The position numbers and the translations under genes are program-made. A stretch of DNA of 34,932 nt from Candidatus Nomurabacteria bacterium (GTDB taxonomy: Bacteria > Patescibacteriota > Minisyncoccia > Phycocordibacterales > UBA9973), in assembly GCA_037440325.1 (NCBI GenBank), contig JBBIUG010000002.1, forward strand, positions 1 through 34,932, given 5' to 3'. Positions within the stretch are counted from its first letter, which is position 1, and every line of letters starts with the position of its first letter. Of this stretch, positions 7,099-34,932 are shown one piece after another. The notes under the pieces are model-generated. The model was not told the origin of the DNA, did not search any database, and worked only from the letters and a program-made list of their open reading frames with translations.

Positions 7099-7188
7099 TG
7101 GCGGAGAGAGAGGGATTCGAACCCTCGGTCCTTTTTGGGGGACGACAGTTTAGTAAACTGTTGGTTTAAACCACTCACCCATCTCTCC
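7099..7188 (-). tRNA. Type-II (long variable arm) tRNA-Ser-like gene with anticodon ACU; CCA encoded
   Basis: Reverse complement folds as GGAGAGA-TG-GGT-GAGTGGTTTAA-ACC-A-ACAGT-TTACTAA-ACTGT-CGTCCCCCAAAAAGGACC-GAGGG-TTCGAAT-CCCTC-TCTCTCC-G-CCA. All stems are Watson-Crick and the discriminator is G73. Confidence 0.75.
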
Positions 7189-7386: not shown

Positions 7387-7475
7387 GGAGCCGTGTCAGA
7401 GTGGTCTAACGTACCTCTTTGCTAAAGAGGCAGGGGCTTCAAAACCCCTCGACGGTTCGAATCCGTCCGGCTCCG
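7387..7475 (+). tRNA. tRNA-Ser(GCU), type II
   Basis: Acceptor GGAGCCG/CGGCTCC, anticodon arm CCTCT-TTGCTAA-AGAGG, long variable arm AGGGG...CCCCT, T arm GACGG-TTCGAAT-CCGTC, G73. The D stem (TCA/CGT) pairs poorly in my fold. Confidence 0.8.
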
Positions 7476-7489
7476 CATTTTATTAAAAC

Positions 7490-8166: not shown

Positions 8167-10389
8167 ATGGAACTTCACGAAAAAATAGAAACAAAATTTC
8201 GCCTAGACATAAATCAGAAAAAAGCCCTGCACCGACTGAAAATTTTTTCGGTGGCAGACTTACTTTTTCATTTTCCCCTCCGGTATAGCGATATTAGTGA
8301 AGTCAAAAACATTTCAGAACTGGTTCCAGGGGATATGGCAACGGTTTACGGGAAAATCTCAAAATTAAAGACAAAGAAATCTTTTCACACAAAAGTTCCA
8401 ATGGCTGAGGGCGAAATTGAAGATTTGTCAGGGAAAATAAAAATCACCTGGTTCAATCAAGCATATTTGGCCAAGATGATAAAGAATGAGGAAAATGTAA
8501 AACTAACCGGGAAGGTCACCCAAGGAAAAAATGGTATTTATTTGGCCAACCCCGAGTTTGAAAAAATGCCGGATATGCCGATAGACAAGCACGACACTCT
8601 TTTTACGGGAGAAAATGCACCAAACACCGGTTTCTCGTATCCCATTTATGCCGAGACTCGTGGCATCACTTCAAAATGGTTTTATCATGCAATAGAAAAA
8701 ATATTTAAAGAACACACGTTGGATCGAATCGAAGATTACATTCCAGATGATATATTAAAAAAATACCACCTCCCCACCCTAAAGACAGCCCTGGTTTGGA
8801 TTCACAAACCAAAGAACAAATACGACGCAGCATCCGCACGCAAAAGATTCGCTTTTGAAGAAGTTTTTTGTATTCAACTTGAGCGTCAGCATGATAAATT
8901 TGAATATAGAAAAAATAAATCTTTTCAAATAAAAACCGACAAAAGGGTTGTGGAAGACTTTTTGAAACGTTTTCCATTTTCATTAACCAACTCACAAAAG
9001 AAATCAACTGAAACAATTTTGGAAGACATGGGAAAGAGTTTTCCGATGTCTAGACTGCTTGAAGGCGATGTCGGTTCCGGAAAGACAGCCGTGGCGGCCA
9101 CCGCCACTCACGTAGCCATCAATCAGCGACCAAACGGACAAAGTTTCGGTAATCTGCAAGTAGCATATATGGCGCCTACTGAGATTCTGGCGACTCAACA
9201 TTTTGAATCATTCATCCAATACTTCAAACACCTGCCGATAAATATCGGGCTCATTACCGGATCTGGTTGTCGTAAATTTCCTTCAAAAATAAACCCGGAT
9301 GGTTGGACCACTATTTCTCGTGCCCAACTTTTAAAATGGACAGCAAATGGAGAAATACCAATTTTAATCGGCACCCATGCACTTATCCAAAAAACTGTGA
9401 AGTTTAAAAATCTGGCCATGGTAATAATTGACGAGCAGCATCGTTTTGGCACAGCCCAGAGAAGAAAACTAGTCCGCAAAGATGGGGTCGCTCCGCACTT
9501 ACTCTCCATGACCGCCACCCCCATTCCCCGCACACTAGCTCTCACTATTTATGGAGACCTAGACCTATCTTTGCTTTTAGAAATGCCCGCCGGACGAAAA
9601 CAAATAATTACTGAAATAATTACTCCAAACAAGCGAGAAGAAACTTATGAAAAAATAAAAGAAGAATTAAAAAATGGTAGACAGCTTTATGTCATTTGTC
9701 CGAGAATATTTGAAGCCGAAGCGGAGACTGCCCAAGTTTTTGGTCCCCGAGGGTCCCACTCCAAAGGAGAAGGGCGCAGGGGGCAAAAATTTGGGCAGCT
9801 GGAGCTCAAGGCGGTCACAACAGAGGCAAAACGACTGAAAAAAGAAGTTTTCCCGGAGTACGAAATAGGTATTCTGCACAGTAAAATGAGCAAGGAAAAA
9901 AAAGAAAAAGTAATGCAAGATTTTACTGAAGGAAAAATAAATATTTTGTGCGCCACCTCTGTAGTGGAAGTCGGAGTGAACGTTCCGAACGCCACTGTAA
10001 TCATTATCGAGGGGGCCGAACGTTTCGGGCTCGCCCAGCTTCACCAACTTCGTGGACGCGTCATCAGAAGTAATCATCAAGCATATTGTTACATTTTTGC
10101 CGAAGCAAAAAGTGAAAAGACGATGGAGAGACTGAAGGCAATCAAGACTGCCAAAAATGGTTTTGAGTTGGCGGAGCTTGATCTAGCGCTTCGCGGACCA
10201 GGAGAATTGGGTGGTACCAAGCAATGGGGCATCACTGATCTAGGAATGGAAGCAATAAAAAATATAAAAATGGTTGAGGCAGCCAGAACAGAAGCAATTC
10301 GCCTGATTGAAGAAGATTCGGAACTAATAAAATATCCACTTCTTAAACAAAAAGTGAAACAAAAGACGTCTGAATTCCATTTCGAATAA
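8167..10389 (+). CDS. recG: ATP-dependent DNA helicase RecG
   Basis: Wedge/OB N-terminus, motif I GDVGSGKT, DEQHRFG, SMTATPIPRT, and QLHQLRGRVIR. It carries an extra segment of about 24 aa between the helicase lobes (see repeat 9728-9798). Confidence 0.9.
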   Translation: MELHEKIETKFRLDINQKKALHRLKIFSVADLLFHFPLRYSDISEVKNISELVPGDMATVYGKISKLKTKKSFHTKVPMAEGEIEDLSGKIKITWFNQAYLAKMIKNEENVKLTGKVTQGKNGIYLANPEFEKMPDMPIDKHDTLFTGENAPNTGFSYPIYAETRGITSKWFYHAIEKIFKEHTLDRIEDYIPDDILKKYHLPTLKTALVWIHKPKNKYDAASARKRFAFEEVFCIQLERQHDKFEYRKNKSFQIKTDKRVVEDFLKRFPFSLTNSQKKSTETILEDMGKSFPMSRLLEGDVGSGKTAVAATATHVAINQRPNGQSFGNLQVAYMAPTEILATQHFESFIQYFKHLPINIGLITGSGCRKFPSKINPDGWTTISRAQLLKWTANGEIPILIGTHALIQKTVKFKNLAMVIIDEQHRFGTAQRRKLVRKDGVAPHLLSMTATPIPRTLALTIYGDLDLSLLLEMPAGRKQIITEIITPNKREETYEKIKEELKNGRQLYVICPRIFEAEAETAQVFGPRGSHSKGEGRRGQKFGQLELKAVTTEAKRLKKEVFPEYEIGILHSKMSKEKKEKVMQDFTEGKINILCATSVVEVGVNVPNATVIIIEGAERFGLAQLHQLRGRVIRSNHQAYCYIFAEAKSEKTMERLKAIKTAKNGFELAELDLALRGPGELGGTKQWGITDLGMEAIKNIKMVEAARTEAIRLIEEDSELIKYPLLKQKVKQKTSEFHFE
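9728..9798. repeat. GC-cored hairpin element, copy A, in-frame inside recG
   Basis: A 15-bp stem CTGCCCAAGTTTTTG / CAAAAATTTGGGCAG encloses the core CCGAGGGTCCCACTCCAAAGGAGAAGGGCGCAGG (9747-9780). The core is 33/34 identical to 16600-16633. Confidence 0.8.
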
Positions 10390-13837: not shown

Positions 13838-14039
13838 GGGGCTTTATTATACACGAAATTATTTTTTTGAGTAAAGTGTTTTTTTGTTAATTTCGTGACA
13901 AAAAACGTTAAGCAACAGAAAAAAAATAAAACAAGACGGAAAGGAAAAATCTCAAGACAGGCAACAAGAATTTTCACAAAAAATTTTCTTTTTTTTGTAA
14001 AATTATCTCTTGACGAAGCAGATAGAATGATTTTTAATG

Positions 14040-14113
14040 TCCGTCCTCTTGGATTCGAACCAAGGACCCCAGAGGTATAAGCTCTGTGCTCTAACCAACT
14101 GAGCTAAGGACGG
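14040..14113 (-). tRNA. tRNA-Ile with anticodon UAU
   Basis: Reverse complement: CCGTCCT-TA-GCTC-AGTTGGTTA-GAGC-A-CAGAG-CTTATAC-CTCTG-GGGTC-CTTGG-TTCGAAT-CCAAG-AGGACGG-A. The cloverleaf is fully paired, the discriminator is A73, and CCA is not encoded. Confidence 0.85.
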
Positions 14114-16571: not shown

Positions 16572-16660
16572 AAGCGAAGTTTCCTAAAAATTTTTTAGTC
16601 CGAGGGTCCCGCTCCAAAGGAGAAGGGCGCAGGACAAAAAATTATTAGAAAACTTCGCTT
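16572..16660. repeat. GC-cored hairpin element, copy B (smpB-ssrA spacer)
   Basis: A stem of about 25 bp, AAGCGAAGTTTCCTAAAAATTTTTT / AAAAAATTATTAGAAAACTTCGCTT, encloses GTCCGAGGGTCCCGCTCCAAAGGAGAAGGGCGCAGGAC. Confidence 0.8.
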
Positions 16661-21659: not shown

Positions 21660-24428
21660 CTACTCCATCGTTTTATATCGATTTATTATCTCAGTTTCCA
21701 CTTCTTCCCTATCGCGACCGTATTTTATGTAGGAAAGTTCCTTCAAATTTTCCACAATGCTTGGATTGCCGATCTCTGGCGCCAAGGTGCGCAGATTAAA
21801 TGGTTTTGTTGGTTGCCCTTTAACCAACATACTCATATAAGCGTTGTAATTGTCGAGTTTGGTAATATCCGCTGCGGTGAATTGTGGTTTGAATTTTGGT
21901 TCCAAAAATACCGCGTCTTCGGTACCTACTCGGAAAACCGCCATCGAACCGACATTGCCAAAGACGGCGTTCTTGATACCCTCTTCAAGCTGGCTGATGT
22001 ATTGATGCGCAATGTTGAGAGACAATCGATATTTTCTCGCCTCCGAAAGAATTGAAGCGATCGAATCGGTGGTGACATTCTGAAACTCATCAATATAAAG
22101 ATAAAAATCATTCATCGGTTTGCCGAACATGTCGACACGCGACAGGGCCGCCATTTGTATTTTCCCCACGAGCACAAGACCGATCAAATTTGCGTTAATG
22201 TCTCCTAGCCTCCCCTTGGACAGATTTACCAAAAGAATTTTCTTCTCGTCCATAATCTTACGGAAATTAAAAACAGAATTTTGCTGAAGCACTACCGGGC
22301 GCATGATGTCGTTCGAGATAAAATTATCGAATTTGGATGAGATATATGGAACAAAGTTCGCAAGCGATTGATCTCCGGAAGTTTGTTCGGCCGCAACCCA
22401 GAATTGCTTAATAATCGGATTTTTACATTTGGAAAGTTTGTAATCACGGAACTTTTTGTCTGCCAATACTCGAGTAATCTCGAGCAGAGTGGAGCCGGAC
22501 TCCGGGTCCTCCATTACCAAGAAGGCGCTATTCCTAAAGTACTGTTCGAACATAGCTCCGCCACCGATTTTCATATCAAAAAGCTTATTAAAAATACCCA
22601 TCATTTCATTTACCACGAAGGTTTTTTGCTCCGGATATTTCGGATCATATTCAAGCATATTAAGACCCATTGGGCGCGCAATATATGCAGGGTCAAAGTA
22701 AATAACATCATCTATACGTTCCTTTGGAATACGAGATAAAATGGTCTGGATATCCGTGCCGTGCGGATCAATATAACAACAGCCGTCCCCGTTTTTGATG
22801 TCCTGGGTAATCATGTTGAGCATAATGTTTGTCTTCCCTGTCCCTGTCTGGCCGATAACATAAAAATGTCTCATGCGGTCTTCGCGAGCAAGGTGAATTT
22901 CTGTATCTTTACCCCGATAATTGTTTACTCCTAAAATTATTCCCTCATTCCCCATTTCAATCGGAGCAGGACCAATGCCGGCTCGTGCTTCTTTGAGCTG
23001 CGGCTGACTGCCAATGCCAACCGGAAAATGAAACACCGAAGAAAGTTCTTTCAAATTCATCGGCAACACCTTGTCGCCCAAAAAGGTGCGGTAGGAAAAA
23101 TCATGAAATAGTTTTTTCAAATCCCCTCCGGAAACTCGTTCGAAAACAAATGAATTGCTGGCTGCTTCGGAAAACTGGTTGAAGGATGATTCTATCTCGC
23201 GCAAAATCGCCTCCGCACGTTCTTTGCTTTCTCCGGAGGCTATCACCCGAATATTCGCTTTCATGATGGTACTTTTTATTTTATTGCCGATTTTTTCTGC
23301 CGCTCCTTCGTCTACCGCTCGCCTGCCTTTCATATATTTCTCTTTTACTTCGCTGTCTTCTTTTTCCTTCTTGCCGAAAAGCAGCTCTTTACCAACGCTA
23401 ATGAAGGCTCTGTTAAATTTATAATAATTATCCGCCGCGTTTTTAACAGACATGCCGTCTTTTACGTCGTCTAGAATTTTATGAAATTCATTAATAAATT
23501 TGTCGCCGGACGGGACGATAACAAGTTGAATCGCTGCCCCCTCCCCTGAAGTTTTTAATTTTGAAAACACATTCAGAATCGGGTTCATCGGATCATGATC
23601 AATATTGTCATACGTTTTTATCGGCATGACTGCTCGCTCGGAAAAACTGGCGTACGCGCCGACCGAGCCGCCTTTTTCATTGAAGATATTGTAATCATCG
23701 GAGACTTCTTTAATTTTCGCATCGTGGTAAAAAGCTAAAACCTGTTTTTCAAAAAGAGAAAGATATTTGTTGGGAACTGCTGCGTACACCACCACTTCGT
23801 CACTTTGATTTCCTAGCGCTACTTCTAGAGTAAAATAATTTTCTTTTTCATTATATTTTCCTTCTCCGATAGATTGCATGCCTGCATAAAATTGTTCCAT
23901 TGCCCCGATGAATTCTTTGAAATTCTTTGATTCATCCGCTTCATCTTGAGGTGGCGGTAAGGTAATTTCAAAAAGCGTCATGTTTAGAGATTTGTAAAAA
24001 GGAGTACCTTCCTTTAAATCAAAAATAACTTGCCCAGTTTTAATATATTGAATAAGAATGCGGTGAAAATCATCGTCTACATGTGGGTTGTTCATCGCCC
24101 CCACCACAGAAAGTGCATTTCGAATTCCTTTAGTGACAACAATTCCCAAAAGCTCTTCCATAACGACATCGTGCGTCTCTGGTTTAAGCGCAAGCACAAT
24201 CCCCTCTGTCTCTTTTTTGCTGATTAGACTGTCTTCATGAACCAGTTTTTCGGCTGGAATATTTTTGTATCCGACAATAACGTCCTTCGCGGCATTTTCC
24301 TTTGTGTGTTCAATGTGTCCGGCCTTGATAAGTTCTTCTTCTCTGGCTTTAACGTGTGCACGCAAATAGTCTAGCTCCTCTTCTGGGCTTTTGAACTTCG
24401 GCATCTCTTTAAAGAATGACGGTTCCAT
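21660..24428 (-). CDS. Large VirD4/TraG/TraD-like (FtsK-HerA superfamily) P-loop ATPase with an unassigned N-terminal half of about 500 aa
   Basis: Walker A GQTGTGKT, Walker B FYLYIDEFQNV, and the TraG/TraD C-terminal-type motif EARKYRLSLNIAHQYISQL. Confidence 0.7.
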   Translation of the reverse strand: MEPSFFKEMPKFKSPEEELDYLRAHVKAREEELIKAGHIEHTKENAAKDVIVGYKNIPAEKLVHEDSLISKKETEGIVLALKPETHDVVMEELLGIVVTKGIRNALSVVGAMNNPHVDDDFHRILIQYIKTGQVIFDLKEGTPFYKSLNMTLFEITLPPPQDEADESKNFKEFIGAMEQFYAGMQSIGEGKYNEKENYFTLEVALGNQSDEVVVYAAVPNKYLSLFEKQVLAFYHDAKIKEVSDDYNIFNEKGGSVGAYASFSERAVMPIKTYDNIDHDPMNPILNVFSKLKTSGEGAAIQLVIVPSGDKFINEFHKILDDVKDGMSVKNAADNYYKFNRAFISVGKELLFGKKEKEDSEVKEKYMKGRRAVDEGAAEKIGNKIKSTIMKANIRVIASGESKERAEAILREIESSFNQFSEAASNSFVFERVSGGDLKKLFHDFSYRTFLGDKVLPMNLKELSSVFHFPVGIGSQPQLKEARAGIGPAPIEMGNEGIILGVNNYRGKDTEIHLAREDRMRHFYVIGQTGTGKTNIMLNMITQDIKNGDGCCYIDPHGTDIQTILSRIPKERIDDVIYFDPAYIARPMGLNMLEYDPKYPEQKTFVVNEMMGIFNKLFDMKIGGGAMFEQYFRNSAFLVMEDPESGSTLLEITRVLADKKFRDYKLSKCKNPIIKQFWVAAEQTSGDQSLANFVPYISSKFDNFISNDIMRPVVLQQNSVFNFRKIMDEKKILLVNLSKGRLGDINANLIGLVLVGKIQMAALSRVDMFGKPMNDFYLYIDEFQNVTTDSIASILSEARKYRLSLNIAHQYISQLEEGIKNAVFGNVGSMAVFRVGTEDAVFLEPKFKPQFTAADITKLDNYNAYMSMLVKGQPTKPFNLRTLAPEIGNPSIVENLKELSYIKYGRDREEVETEIINRYKTME

Positions 24429-30425: not shown

Positions 30426-30440
30426 ACATTGCTTATAATG

Positions 30441-30469
30441 TTGACAAAATCTATTTTTTCTGTTAATTT
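30441..30469 (+). promoter_or_regulatory. Putative promoter of the 75-aa ORF (TTGACA-17-TAATTT)
   Basis: TTGACA at 30441-30446 and TAATTT at 30464-30469. The two -35 boxes are back-to-back within the imperfect palindrome GTCAAACATTGCTTATAATGTTGAC. Confidence 0.45.
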
Positions 30470-30490
30470 ATAAGCGAAAGGAGGTTCCCC

Positions 30491-30718
30491 ATGAAAAGAT
30501 ACATCGCATTTGTGTTCACCTATCGCTTCGACGTGGAACACGGATGGAACAACGTACTTCGCAACAAAAGAACGGAAGAGGTCGCATCGTGGGACGTGAG
30601 ATGGCGCGCCAACGCTGCGGCCAAGAAAGAACTGCGGGAGCGGCAAAAACGAGGAGAAGGACGGCAAGAATCCCAGGTGGTAGACCTTCACACAGGAGAA
30701 ATGCATCAAGTCGGCTAG
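30491..30718 (+). CDS. Small (75 aa) GC-rich ORF of unknown function, antisense to the ribosomal operon
   Basis: AAGGAGG lies 7 nt upstream of the ATG. Codon choice is rich in C/G-ending codons, unlike the neighbours. The ORF is followed by strong terminators. No family recognised. Confidence 0.5.
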   Translation: MKRYIAFVFTYRFDVEHGWNNVLRNKRTEEVASWDVRWRANAAAKKELRERQKRGEGRQESQVVDLHTGEMHQVG

Positions 30719-30736
30719 TATCCACCATACAATCTT

Positions 30737-30768
30737 GGGCCCCCGCCGGCAAAAGCCGGCGGGGGCCC
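30737..30768. terminator. Perfect 14-bp GC palindrome GGGCCCCCGCCGGC-AAAA-GCCGGCGGGGGCCC
   Basis: Read directly from the sequence. No immediate U-tract on the + strand; an A-run follows. Confidence 0.55.
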
Positions 30769-30777
30769 AAAAACAAA

Positions 30778-30800
30778 ACACCCTTACGGGTGTTTCTTTG
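30778..30800. terminator. Bidirectional intrinsic terminator ACACCC-TTAC-GGGTGT with T-runs on both strands
   Basis: The + strand is followed by TTCTTTGTTT. The - strand is followed by TTTGTTTTT. It lies 17 nt downstream of the rplE stop. Confidence 0.65.
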
Positions 30801-34050: not shown

Positions 34051-34404
34051 TTATTTCTTTGCGCCTTTTGCATCCGCAGCAGCAGCCGTAGCGGCCTTAG
34101 CTTGAGTGATTTCAGCCTCCTTCTTCTTTTGTTCAAGCTCCTTCTGCATCTTACCTCCGTGTTTTATAAATTTCTTAGTCGGGGAAAATTCTCCGAGTCT
34201 GTGTCCAACCATATCTTCAGTAACTAAAACTTCTATGTGATTTTTACCGTTATAAACGCCAAAAGTAAAACCGAGCATTTCCGGAGAAATAACACAAGCT
34301 CTTCTCCAAGTTTTTACTACTGGAGCCTGCAACGGGTTTTTACCGGCAATCTTTTTCAAGAGCCGTTCATCAACATTTAATCCTTTTTTGATTGATCTTG
34401 TCAT
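34051..34404 (-). CDS. rpsS: 30S ribosomal protein S19
   Basis: MTRSIKKG...TWRRACVISPEMLGFTFGVYNGKNH..V.VTEDMVGHRLGEFSPT. Has an Ala/Lys-rich C-terminal extension. Confidence 0.95.
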   Translation of the reverse strand: MTRSIKKGLNVDERLLKKIAGKNPLQAPVVKTWRRACVISPEMLGFTFGVYNGKNHIEVLVTEDMVGHRLGEFSPTKKFIKHGGKMQKELEQKKKEAEITQAKAATAAAADAKGAKK

Positions 34405-34420
34405 AAATTATGCAAACAAA

Positions 34421-34471
34421 AAGCTCCTAACGAGCTTGGTTTTATAATAGCAAATTCAGTTTAAATGTCAA
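34421..34471 (-). promoter_or_regulatory. Putative rpsS promoter (TTGACA-16-TATTAT) and leader hairpin AAGCUC-GUUAG-GAGCUU followed by a U-rich tract
   Basis: -35 at 34471-34466, -10 at 34449-34444, and the hairpin at 34437-34421, all read on the minus strand. Confidence 0.45.
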
Positions 34472-34486
34472 ATTGGCAAGTTAAAA

Positions 34487-34504
34487 GGGGGCCGATCGGC
34501 CCCC
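34487..34504. terminator. Perfect GC palindrome GGGGGCCGATCGGCCCCC with T-runs on both strands
   Basis: The - strand hairpin is followed by TTTTAAC. The + strand hairpin is followed by TTCTTTTG. It lies 23 nt downstream of the 47-aa ORF stop. Confidence 0.65.
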
Positions 34505-34526
34505 TTCTTTTGATCCTGATCTCCCC

Positions 34527-34670
34527 TTAGTTGGGGGTGGCTGCCCTTCGCCCAGGCGTCTCTATCTCCTTGGCAAAGAGCGCCCGCTGAACGCTCGCGC
34601 TCGTTGGCGGATGCTTCGGGCCCGCCTTGTGCTTCTTCCCTCGGCCTTTCTTCCTGTGGTTCTTCGGCAT
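34527..34670 (-). CDS. Small (47 aa) very basic GC-rich ORF (MPKNHRKKGRGKKHKAGPKHPP...), below the ORF-track size cutoff
   Basis: Hand-translated. AGGAGG lies 5 nt upstream of the ATG. A TAATG stop/start overlap links it to the upstream ORF. The third-codon positions are strongly G/C-biased in this frame. A terminator follows. Confidence 0.4.
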   Translation of the reverse strand: MPKNHRKKGRGKKHKAGPKHPPTSASVQRALFAKEIETPGRRAATPN

Positions 34671-34831
34671 TACCCCCTCCTCGCAGGCAGATACGGCCCG
34701 AACGTTGGCGTCACGCCGGGCGGAAAAGTGGCCGGAAGCGAATAGAGCCGAGGGTGATCCTCCGTGGTAGAGCTTGGGGTTGGTTTCTTTTCCTTGGGTG
34801 CCTCTTTCTCTTTCTTCACGGATCCCTCCAT
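34670..34831 (-). CDS. Small Pro/Lys-rich GC-rich ORF (49-53 aa) of unknown function
   Basis: ATG at 34831, or GTG at 34819 preceded by GGAGG with a 5-nt spacer. G/C-biased third positions. The ORF-track version (61 aa) starts at a TTG with no SD. Confidence 0.35.
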   Translation of the reverse strand: MEGSVKKEKEAPKEKKPTPSSTTEDHPRLYSLPATFPPGVTPTFGPYLPARRG

Positions 34832-34894
34832 AAAACGACTGTCCGCCAGTGACAACGAGCTATTCCGCTTTTTTCTCTCTCCTTTCTAGGGTAT

Positions 34895-34922
34895 ATTATA
34901 ACATATCAAGGAAATAAAGCAA
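34895..34922 (-). promoter_or_regulatory. Putative promoter of the GC-rich two-ORF cassette (TTGCTT-16-TGtTATAAT, extended -10)
   Basis: -10 TATAAT at 34900-34895 with TG at 34903-34902. -35 TTGCTT at 34922-34917. Confidence 0.4.
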
Positions 34923-34932
34923 GCATCAAAAA

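Follow-up and report, generated by a model that had tools for sequence, protein, structure and literature searches.

A strain-specific pair of small open reading frames in a putative resident expression slot between rplB and rpsS of a Candidatus Nomurabacteria bacterium

The DNA analyzed here (the window) comprises all 34,932 nucleotides (nt) of Candidatus Nomurabacteria contig JBBIUG010000002.1 (assembly GCA_037440325.1). At its end, at positions 34405-34932 and read on the minus strand, it holds a GC-rich block, named island B, between the rplB side and rpsS. Comparison with sister strains indicates that the interior of this block, referred to below as the payload, has been replaced and has not simply diverged, whereas the promoter and the terminator on either side of it are resident. 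Island B is probably a strain-specific micro-operon of two open reading frames (ORFs) for small peptides, ORF1 and ORF2, located in a resident expression slot at the rplB-rpsS boundary. In this slot, an extended -10 promoter and an intrinsic terminator, both conserved, would lie immediately ahead of the rpsS promoter and leader of the clade. The payload would be transcribed independently from the slot promoter and swapped wholesale between close strains, with homologous recombination across the conserved flanks as the most likely route. Its source would be a diverse pool of orphan, GC-rich mini-genes with a common codon signature that is not that of the host.

The replacement was recognized in two sister contigs, L116 and L117, which were retrieved with the rpsS leader as a probe; this probe brought back 45 clade members. 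The RpsS proteins of these two contigs are 95-96% identical to that of the window, and the rpsS DNA is 88-91% identical; nearly all of the differences fall on third codon positions, of which 22-33% are changed. With this limited change at third positions, unconstrained DNA should be about 70% identical and easily aligned. The rpsS promoter and leader were identical to those of the window except for one base. The island B promoter was about 90% identical in both sisters (ATGCTTGCyTTATTTTwTTGATATGTTATAAT), and its core 15-mer was found only in the window, L116 and L117 when 125 loci were compared. The terminator hairpin was also observed at the same position, with paired changes in the stem (GGGGGCC/GGCCCCC versus GGGGTCC/GGGACCCC). 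Matches of both sisters to island B were limited to its positions 1-58 and 427-528, and local alignment of the interiors gave z values of 0.7-1.4 against shuffles, that is, no detectable similarity. L116 has a GC-rich ORF of its own, of 99 amino acids (aa) and led by a putative Shine-Dalgarno (SD) sequence, and L117 has another SD-led, GC-rich ORF of 60 aa together with a second upstream cassette, which encodes a very basic 40-aa peptide directly after rplB. In this last contig rplB is seen upstream of the slot. Since interior z values were close to 1 despite the low neutral divergence, it is concluded that the payload has been exchanged and is not a product of drift. In the same way, the promoter and terminator of island B are considered resident because they are common to sisters with different payloads. 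A comparison with sister genomes had been proposed in an earlier first-pass annotation of this DNA, and it thus found the flanks present and the payload exchanged. The payload ORFs of L116 (272-571, oriented) and L117 (717-899) have a short Cys motif in common, CGGDP..C, near their C-termini, a marginal similarity (E about 0.01) between sequences that are unrelated elsewhere.

Conserved bounding core sequence and non-homologous content in close relatives, the two marks of a replacement island, were therefore both observed. In an independent sublineage, the promoter and a tiny first ORF (MSKRHMEEK(A/S)RRDK...) were common to the loci L126/L128 and L127, and the second ORFs and the terminators were unrelated. 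Moreover, the promoter upstream of the payload is about 90% conserved versus 67-78% for neutral sites, which implies selection for transcription of the slot.

The organization of island B itself is summarized in Table 1. The GC content was 0.61-0.63 over positions 34500-34800, compared with about 0.40 for the contig, and the block extends for about 350 nt. On the sense strand, two ORFs of at least 30 aa led by GGAGG were found, with a total of 96 codons, versus none on the antisense strand. None of 5000 shuffles gave two such ORFs and 0.04% of them reached 96 codons, so this arrangement is non-random; the two GGAGG-start pairs cover about 80% of the interior. The putative SD of ORF1 (GGAGG, 34829-34825) lies 5 nt ahead of GTG 34819, which makes this codon more convincing as the start than ATG 34831. 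The stop codon of ORF1 (TAA, 34672-34670) overlaps the ATG of ORF2 as TAATG, and ORF2 has its own putative SD, AGGAGG, at 34681-34676; for the two ORFs the distance from GGAGG to the start codon is 5-6 nt. T's follow the perfect palindrome GGGGGCCGATCGGCCCCC (34487-34504), which scores as a terminator on both strands, and the TTGACA-16-TATTAT sequence (34471-34444) was the top promoter match within a 5-kb region. All of the elements reported in the first-pass annotation, i.e., the promoter, the two coupled SD-led mini-ORFs, the terminator and the rpsS promoter, were thus recovered at their positions. The Ala/Lys-rich tail of uS19 is a trait of Parcubacteria (PMC9297842), and in an RpsS-based scan the RpsS of the window was 88-93% identical to those of the closest genomes (Paceibacterota/Nomurabacteria). 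The exact products of RpsS, RplV and the ORF of the other GC-rich island were not on record, and a look-up with RplP returned an identical fragment of 1.6 kb that stops short of the junction.

Table 1. Features of island B and of the adjacent rpsS gene, with the occurrences of payload family F1 in related loci (positions refer to the window unless a locus is named).
Feature	Position	Strand	Remarks
Cassette promoter ATGCTTGCTTTATTTCCTTGATATGTTATAAT	34895-34926	-	Extended -10 TGTTATAAT at 34903-34895; read directly
5' untranslated region start CCCTAGAAAGGAGAGAG	34875-34891	-	Common to the window and L116 only; sister similarity stops here (alignment)
Variable GC-rich payload, about 61% GC	34528-34874	-	Unrelated to sister-strain payloads
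ORF1 MKKEKEAPKEKKPTPSSTTEDHPRLYSLPATFPPGVTPTFGPYLPARRG (putative)	34670-34819	-	49 aa from GTG 34819; 53 aa from ATG 34831; Lys/Pro-rich
ORF2 MPKNHRKKGRGKKHKAGPKHPPTSASVQRALFAKEIETPGRRAATPN (putative)	34527-34670	-	47 aa, very basic
Intrinsic terminator GGGGGCC-GATC-GGCCCCC + T run	34483-34506	-	Resident, homologous in sister strains
Native rpsS promoter TTGACA-16-TATTAT, TG-extended	34444-34471	-	11/12 match
rpsS leader hairpin AAGCTC-GTTAG-GAGCTT, then T's	34421-34437	-	Conserved; served as probe
rpsS (uS19)	34051-34404	-	Ala/Lys-rich C-terminal tail typical of Parcubacteria
Payload family F1	L126 7284-7412 (also L128)		
Payload family F1	L085 2440-2511	-	
Payload family F1	L119 624-776		

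The position of island B was then considered in the clade as a whole, for which fourteen ribosomal-protein genes were mapped onto 46 related genome loci. The rplB>rpsS and rplE>rpsZ junctions were repeatedly enlarged by hundreds to thousands of bases, versus tight spacing at the other junctions, and these two positions are those of the two GC-rich islands of the window. A rplB-rpsS gap of more than 150 nt was present in about 27 of the 46 genome loci and in 28 of the 31 metagenome loci holding both genes; in the latter it ranged from 112 to 2652 nt and was under 135 nt in only three. The expectation that rplB should abut rpsS, from which the first-pass annotation started, was therefore not borne out, and a canonical contiguous S10 operon with a short rplB-rpsS spacer does not describe this clade. 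The gaps of the relatives contain pilin-like and membrane proteins, a HicAB-like pair, a Fic-like protein and a 23S-5S rRNA unit, identities that rest on inspection of the translated ORFs and on one Rfam match. The rRNA unit was found in locus L008 (1-2602), in place of rplB and directly upstream of the rpsS promoter, which shows that the junction is freely rearranged. These data show that the rplB-rpsS boundary is a clade-wide hotspot.

Whatever lies upstream, the relatives keep the rpsS promoter (TTGACw, a 17-nt spacer and TAnnAT) and the leader hairpin (AAGCTC, a loop and GAGCTT, then T's), and TTGAC and the -10 box were invariant in 9 relatives irrespective of the upstream content. The promoter behind the terminator had been described as a restart promoter; it did not arrive as part of the insert but is the native rpsS promoter of the clade, kept together with the leader with or without an insert. 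This promoter/leader region (34414-34473 in the window; L001-L008 and L081-L125) is about 99% identical between strains in which 22-33% of the rpsS third positions differ, and no SD precedes rpsS. The region may act as a regulatory element or attenuator for the rpsS-rplE transcription unit.

The payloads of the relatives were analyzed as a class as well. In the GC-rich parts of their rplB-rpsS gaps, SD-led ORFs amounted to 752 codons on the sense strand, versus 179 on the antisense strand and 229 in shuffled sequence. When 42 cassette ORFs were pooled, GC at third codon positions (GC3) was 0.64 in the predicted frames, versus 0.55 and 0.53 for the first and second positions (GC1 and GC2), and AAG made up 72% of the Lys codons. 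The predicted peptides have a high content of Arg, Ser, Lys, Pro, Ala and Gly. Payloads that differ from one another but have this same compositional signature, all of them equally orphan, were present in dozens of relatives; the concatenated sister-cassette ORFs had no match in the protein database, themselves included, so they are annotated nowhere. One family, F1, was recognized by the peptide ..PVVV(A/S)PS.W.GW.R..KTI(L/F)G in ORFs of 43-62 aa. It is confined to the rplB-rpsS gaps of diverged Paceibacterota and had no Pfam or PADLOC match. In its core, synonymous changes occur no less often than non-synonymous ones (for L126/L119 the count was re-registered by eye), a coding-type substitution pattern that points to constraint at the peptide level. 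The evidence that the payloads are coding may thus be called good at the level of the class. A different proposal, that GC-rich blocks are confined to junctions in the relatives, was rejected since Gly/Arg-rich parts of ribosomal-protein genes also pass the threshold.

The cassettes also differ from the host genes in their translation signals. Among 36 host ORFs of at least 110 aa, GGAGG was found before none and any SD-like 4-mer before three, approximate counts in which the first ATG was taken as the start. Host genes favor AAA and GAA, and cassette ORFs favor AAG and GAG, together with AGG and CGG for Arg. This contrast would fit a foreign or separate gene pool; it would also fit selection that favors SD-assisted initiation on mRNAs that are GC-rich and structured.

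As for ORF1 and ORF2, a start codon, a putative ribosome-binding site and a length beyond chance were found for both, and by analogy with the sister cassettes their coding status is plausible; both are presumably translated. The strong G/C preference at third positions that had been claimed for both ORFs was found to a moderate degree in ORF2 (GC1/2/3 of 0.56/0.54/0.77), but was only weak in ORF1 (0.56/0.56/0.65). The codon statistics were clearer in another respect, since they revealed a usage that is not that of the host: AAG accounts for 10 of 14 Lys codons in the two ORFs (71%, versus 26% in host genes) and GAG for 6 of 7 Glu codons (86% versus 25%), and the Arg codons are mostly AGG and CGG, rare in the host.

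The search for counterparts in other genomes, also proposed in the first-pass annotation, gave none. Comparison of the six frames of island B with 5.8 billion protein clusters yielded zero matches, and an exhaustive HMMER search of 1.84 billion representatives with ORF2 returned only tetratricopeptide-repeat (TPR) proteins. These were judged to be artefacts, and a relationship of ORF2 to TPR proteins was rejected: a weak motif, LGPDHPxTAxSL, is multiplied over up to nine repeats, the Pfam TPR models were silent and no TPR family of Pfam was obtained for ORF2 at E<=1. Peptide-pattern scans of metagenome and viral contigs detected no counterpart of ORF1 or ORF2, both were absent from all 134 related loci, and the terminator hairpin was the sole match when island B was compared with phages and plasmids by blastn. 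ORF1, ORF2 and the sister-cassette ORFs had no match in Pfam, PHROGs, NCBIfam, PADLOC or the PDB sequences; in particular, neither PADLOC nor Pfam identified ORF1 or ORF2 as a defence or toxin-antitoxin component.

Several of these results weigh against the interpretation proposed above. The GC3 signal of ORF1 is weak, and both ORFs use codons that are rare in the host. No gene record with the exact product of ORF1 (from either start) or ORF2 was on record, and no homologue of the two ORFs was present in any searched collection. AlphaFold predicted no fold for ORF2, with one short helix (residues 24-36), the rest extended and a pTM of 0.28. The GGAGG sites of the island may not work as ribosome-binding sites in this organism, because the host genes are nearly free of SDs and about half of the Parcubacteria have no anti-SD motif in their 16S rRNA (PMC9297842); the 16S 3' end was present in none of the fetched loci, which were checked for the anti-SD. 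In addition, the window ends 6 nt upstream of the conserved promoter block, so that the upstream flank of the slot lies beyond it.

Other explanations of island B were weighed against the same data. The first-pass annotation had regarded the ORFs as what genuine coding sequence from a high-GC donor would look like, and a recent fragment from such a donor, for example an actinobacterial host, with its own signals included, would account for the GC content (61% versus 40%), the non-host codon usage and the presence of strong SDs while host genes lack them. The fact that some Patescibacteria are episymbionts of high-GC hosts (PMC9297842) was counted in its favor. This origin is nevertheless unlikely, and no positive evidence for it was obtained: repeat artefacts aside, no frame matched the clusters or representatives searched, neither DNA nor peptides had a match in the metagenome, viral, phage and plasmid collections, and the promoter and terminator are resident and not imported. 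Moreover, the different orphan payloads of one signature in dozens of relatives indicate a dedicated pool and not random captures from donors. A functionless filler, whose ORFs would be fortuitous and which a permissive operon boundary would tolerate as selfish DNA or as a decaying remnant, would be consistent with orphan ORFs that are poorly adapted to host codons, lack a predicted fold and are not recorded as called genes, and with a junction that accepts many kinds of insert. It was judged quite unlikely, given that the promoter is conserved beyond neutral sites, that the SD-start-ORF layout recurs in most cassettes and that at least one payload family is constrained at the peptide level; the compactness of patescibacterial genomes was also counted against it.

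A gene for a small non-coding RNA, a structured GC-rich molecule of about 370 nt with the ORFs as by-products of its GC-rich and purine-rich sequence, was regarded as very doubtful. RNA genes typically combine a promoter with a terminator and, in AT-rich genomes, form GC-rich islands; protein homologues are lacking, and folding of the minus strand is somewhat more stable than that of shuffled sequence (z = -2.6). This z value is modest, however, and includes the strong terminator hairpin (the plus strand gave z = -0.3). At the gathering threshold, Rfam 15 detected only the tmRNA and three tRNAs in the whole window; a permissive scan of 34380-34932 gave only sub-threshold matches centred on the terminator, and ARAGORN reported nothing at island B. 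A conserved structured RNA, which had been named as an observation that would overturn the coding interpretation, was thus not detected: the sisters keep the promoter and terminator and not the interior, which is not alignable between them, and paired changes were seen only in the terminator stem. The coverage of about 80% of the interior by GGAGG-start pairs, unmatched by shuffles, and the class-wide enrichment of sense-strand ORFs with a frame-specific GC3 excess also argue against an RNA gene. An assembly or binning artefact, in which a GC-rich read set was chimerically joined to the contig end, had been named in the same way. The block does lie within 430 nt of the contig end and differs sharply in composition from the rest, but the AT-rich flanks on both sides are homologous and in the same order in independent assemblies, the same architecture was observed in JGI, Logan, ENA and NCBI assemblies of relatives, and a second island is located mid-contig. 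Such an artefact is extremely unlikely.

The two-ORF micro-operon in a resident slot is therefore retained as the best explanation. Its products may be small basic peptides, disordered for the most part, with nucleic acids or ribosomes as targets or with a role in conflict between cells or with phages; only their composition and hypervariability suggest this. What is said here about the origin of the GC-rich pool, the mechanism of exchange and the function of the peptides is inferred from these patterns. A broader interpretation, which is speculative and rather improbable, is that Paceibacterota possess a recombinase-free system of expression slots at the boundaries of ribosomal operons, in which a conserved promoter and terminator would present a rapidly exchanged library of GC-rich, SD-dependent mini-genes with their own codon dialect, in genomes that are otherwise free of SDs. 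In such a system the pool might be made or kept by a dedicated mechanism; translation of the mini-genes might take place under special conditions or inside a partner cell, and their role might lie in conflict with phages or between host and symbiont. Island B is outside every mobile-element, RNA or protein family that was tested, and no earlier description of such a slot was found in the searchable literature. The different mini-genes in the slot of near-identical sister strains suggest a small, previously undescribed hotspot for exchangeable peptide genes.

The genomes of Patescibacteria are tiny and gene-dense, and knowledge of strain differences and of interactions with hosts is scarce. If the slot interpretation is true, two boundaries inside the most conserved gene cluster hold fast-turning genes for small peptides behind fixed, selected promoters, an accessory gene class that standard gene callers and homology pipelines largely overlook. 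The conserved flanks could be used as sites for polymerase chain reaction or probes in strain typing, and the payloads of the slot would be candidates for tests of small-protein function. Additionally, the presence of SD-led cassettes among SD-less host genes would have a bearing on translation initiation in lineages reported to lack the anti-SD.

Further observations were made in other parts of the window. The second GC-rich island, island A (30440-30800), is located between rplE and rpsZ. The two islands had been described as mirroring each other, and this was confirmed in part, but the best ORF of island A is antisense to the operon: the island is oriented opposite to it, with a 75-aa ORF on the plus strand (30491-30718, MKRYIAFVFTYRFDVEHGW...), AGGAGG upstream of this ORF and a 16-bp GC hairpin (30735-30770) downstream. 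This ORF is present in the protein collection as a called gene from NCBI, where its sole match is itself, and rpsZ has its own conserved promoter (30425-30397). A GC-rich direct repeat of 62 nt was detected at 9719-9780 and 16572-16633, with 77% identity between the copies. The former copy is in frame within the gene of the RecG helicase (8167-10389), between the DEAD and Helicase_C domains; the latter is intergenic, immediately 5' of the tmRNA gene, with 25-nt inverted repeats at 16572-16596 and 16636-16660. It is possible that this repeat is a miniature element able to sit in coding sequence.

ARAGORN also reported a tRNA-Ile with anticodon TAT (14039-14113) and a tRNA-Ser with anticodon ACT (7099-7188), the latter adjoining a convergent tRNA-Ser(GCT) at 7387-7476; to our knowledge, the TAT (Ile) and ACT (Ser) anticodons are unusual for bacteria. 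Finally, a 922-aa protein is encoded right after map (21660-24428), with weak matches to TrwB/TraG coupling proteins and to HerA-like proteins. L126 and L127 have a 920-aa gene at the same position after map, with DUF8128 and faint TrwB/TraG matches, which indicates that this gene is a conserved neighbour of the ribosomal-protein cluster in the clade.

Among known systems, integrons resemble island B in their fixed promoter, short exchangeable payloads and fixed site. No IntI, other integrase, transposase or reverse transcriptase was found among the contig ORFs of at least 90 aa, and no GTTRRRY core of attC or attI was seen at the island B boundaries by reading of the sequence. In contrast to integron cassettes, the payloads of island B bring their own SD, and the 3' element common to the sisters is an 18-nt perfect palindrome (a terminator with a 7-bp stem) followed by a T run. 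Searches for att-like repeats, or for repeats common to islands A and B, found none. The ribosomal proteins bS21 and the actinobacterial bS22 and bL37 are tiny, very basic and lineage-specific. The predicted peptides of island B are similar to them in being about 40-50 aa long, extremely basic, probably disordered and encoded in a ribosomal-protein cluster; by contrast, ORF1 and ORF2 had no PDB chain, Pfam or NCBIfam match (E<=1 to 10). A lineage-specific ribosomal protein was ruled out, as the payload is not conserved even between sister strains.

Phage morons also resemble island B, which is likewise an autonomous promoter-ORF-terminator unit of deviant composition among conserved co-oriented genes. 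The difference is that island B has no prophage context: its neighbours include ribosomal proteins, SecY, Adk, Map, RecG, RNR, FtsH and SmpB, and ORF1 and ORF2 had no PHROG match. Moreover, a moron moves as a whole, whereas in island B the promoter and terminator stay and the ORF changes. With the replacement genomic islands, or hypervariable regions, of SAR11 and Prochlorococcus, island B has in common a single slot, bounds formed by conserved core genes and unrelated content in close strains; homologous recombination through the flanks is plausible in both, and contigs tend to break there. Island B differs from them in its size (about 0.35 kb versus 10-100 kb), in its location inside a ribosomal-protein gene cluster, in a slot that retains its own conserved promoter and terminator, and in payloads that consist of one to three orphan mini-ORFs with a common GC-rich, SD-led signature. 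By analogy, island B may therefore be best described as similar to a miniature replacement island, or to a moron with constant signals and a changing ORF.

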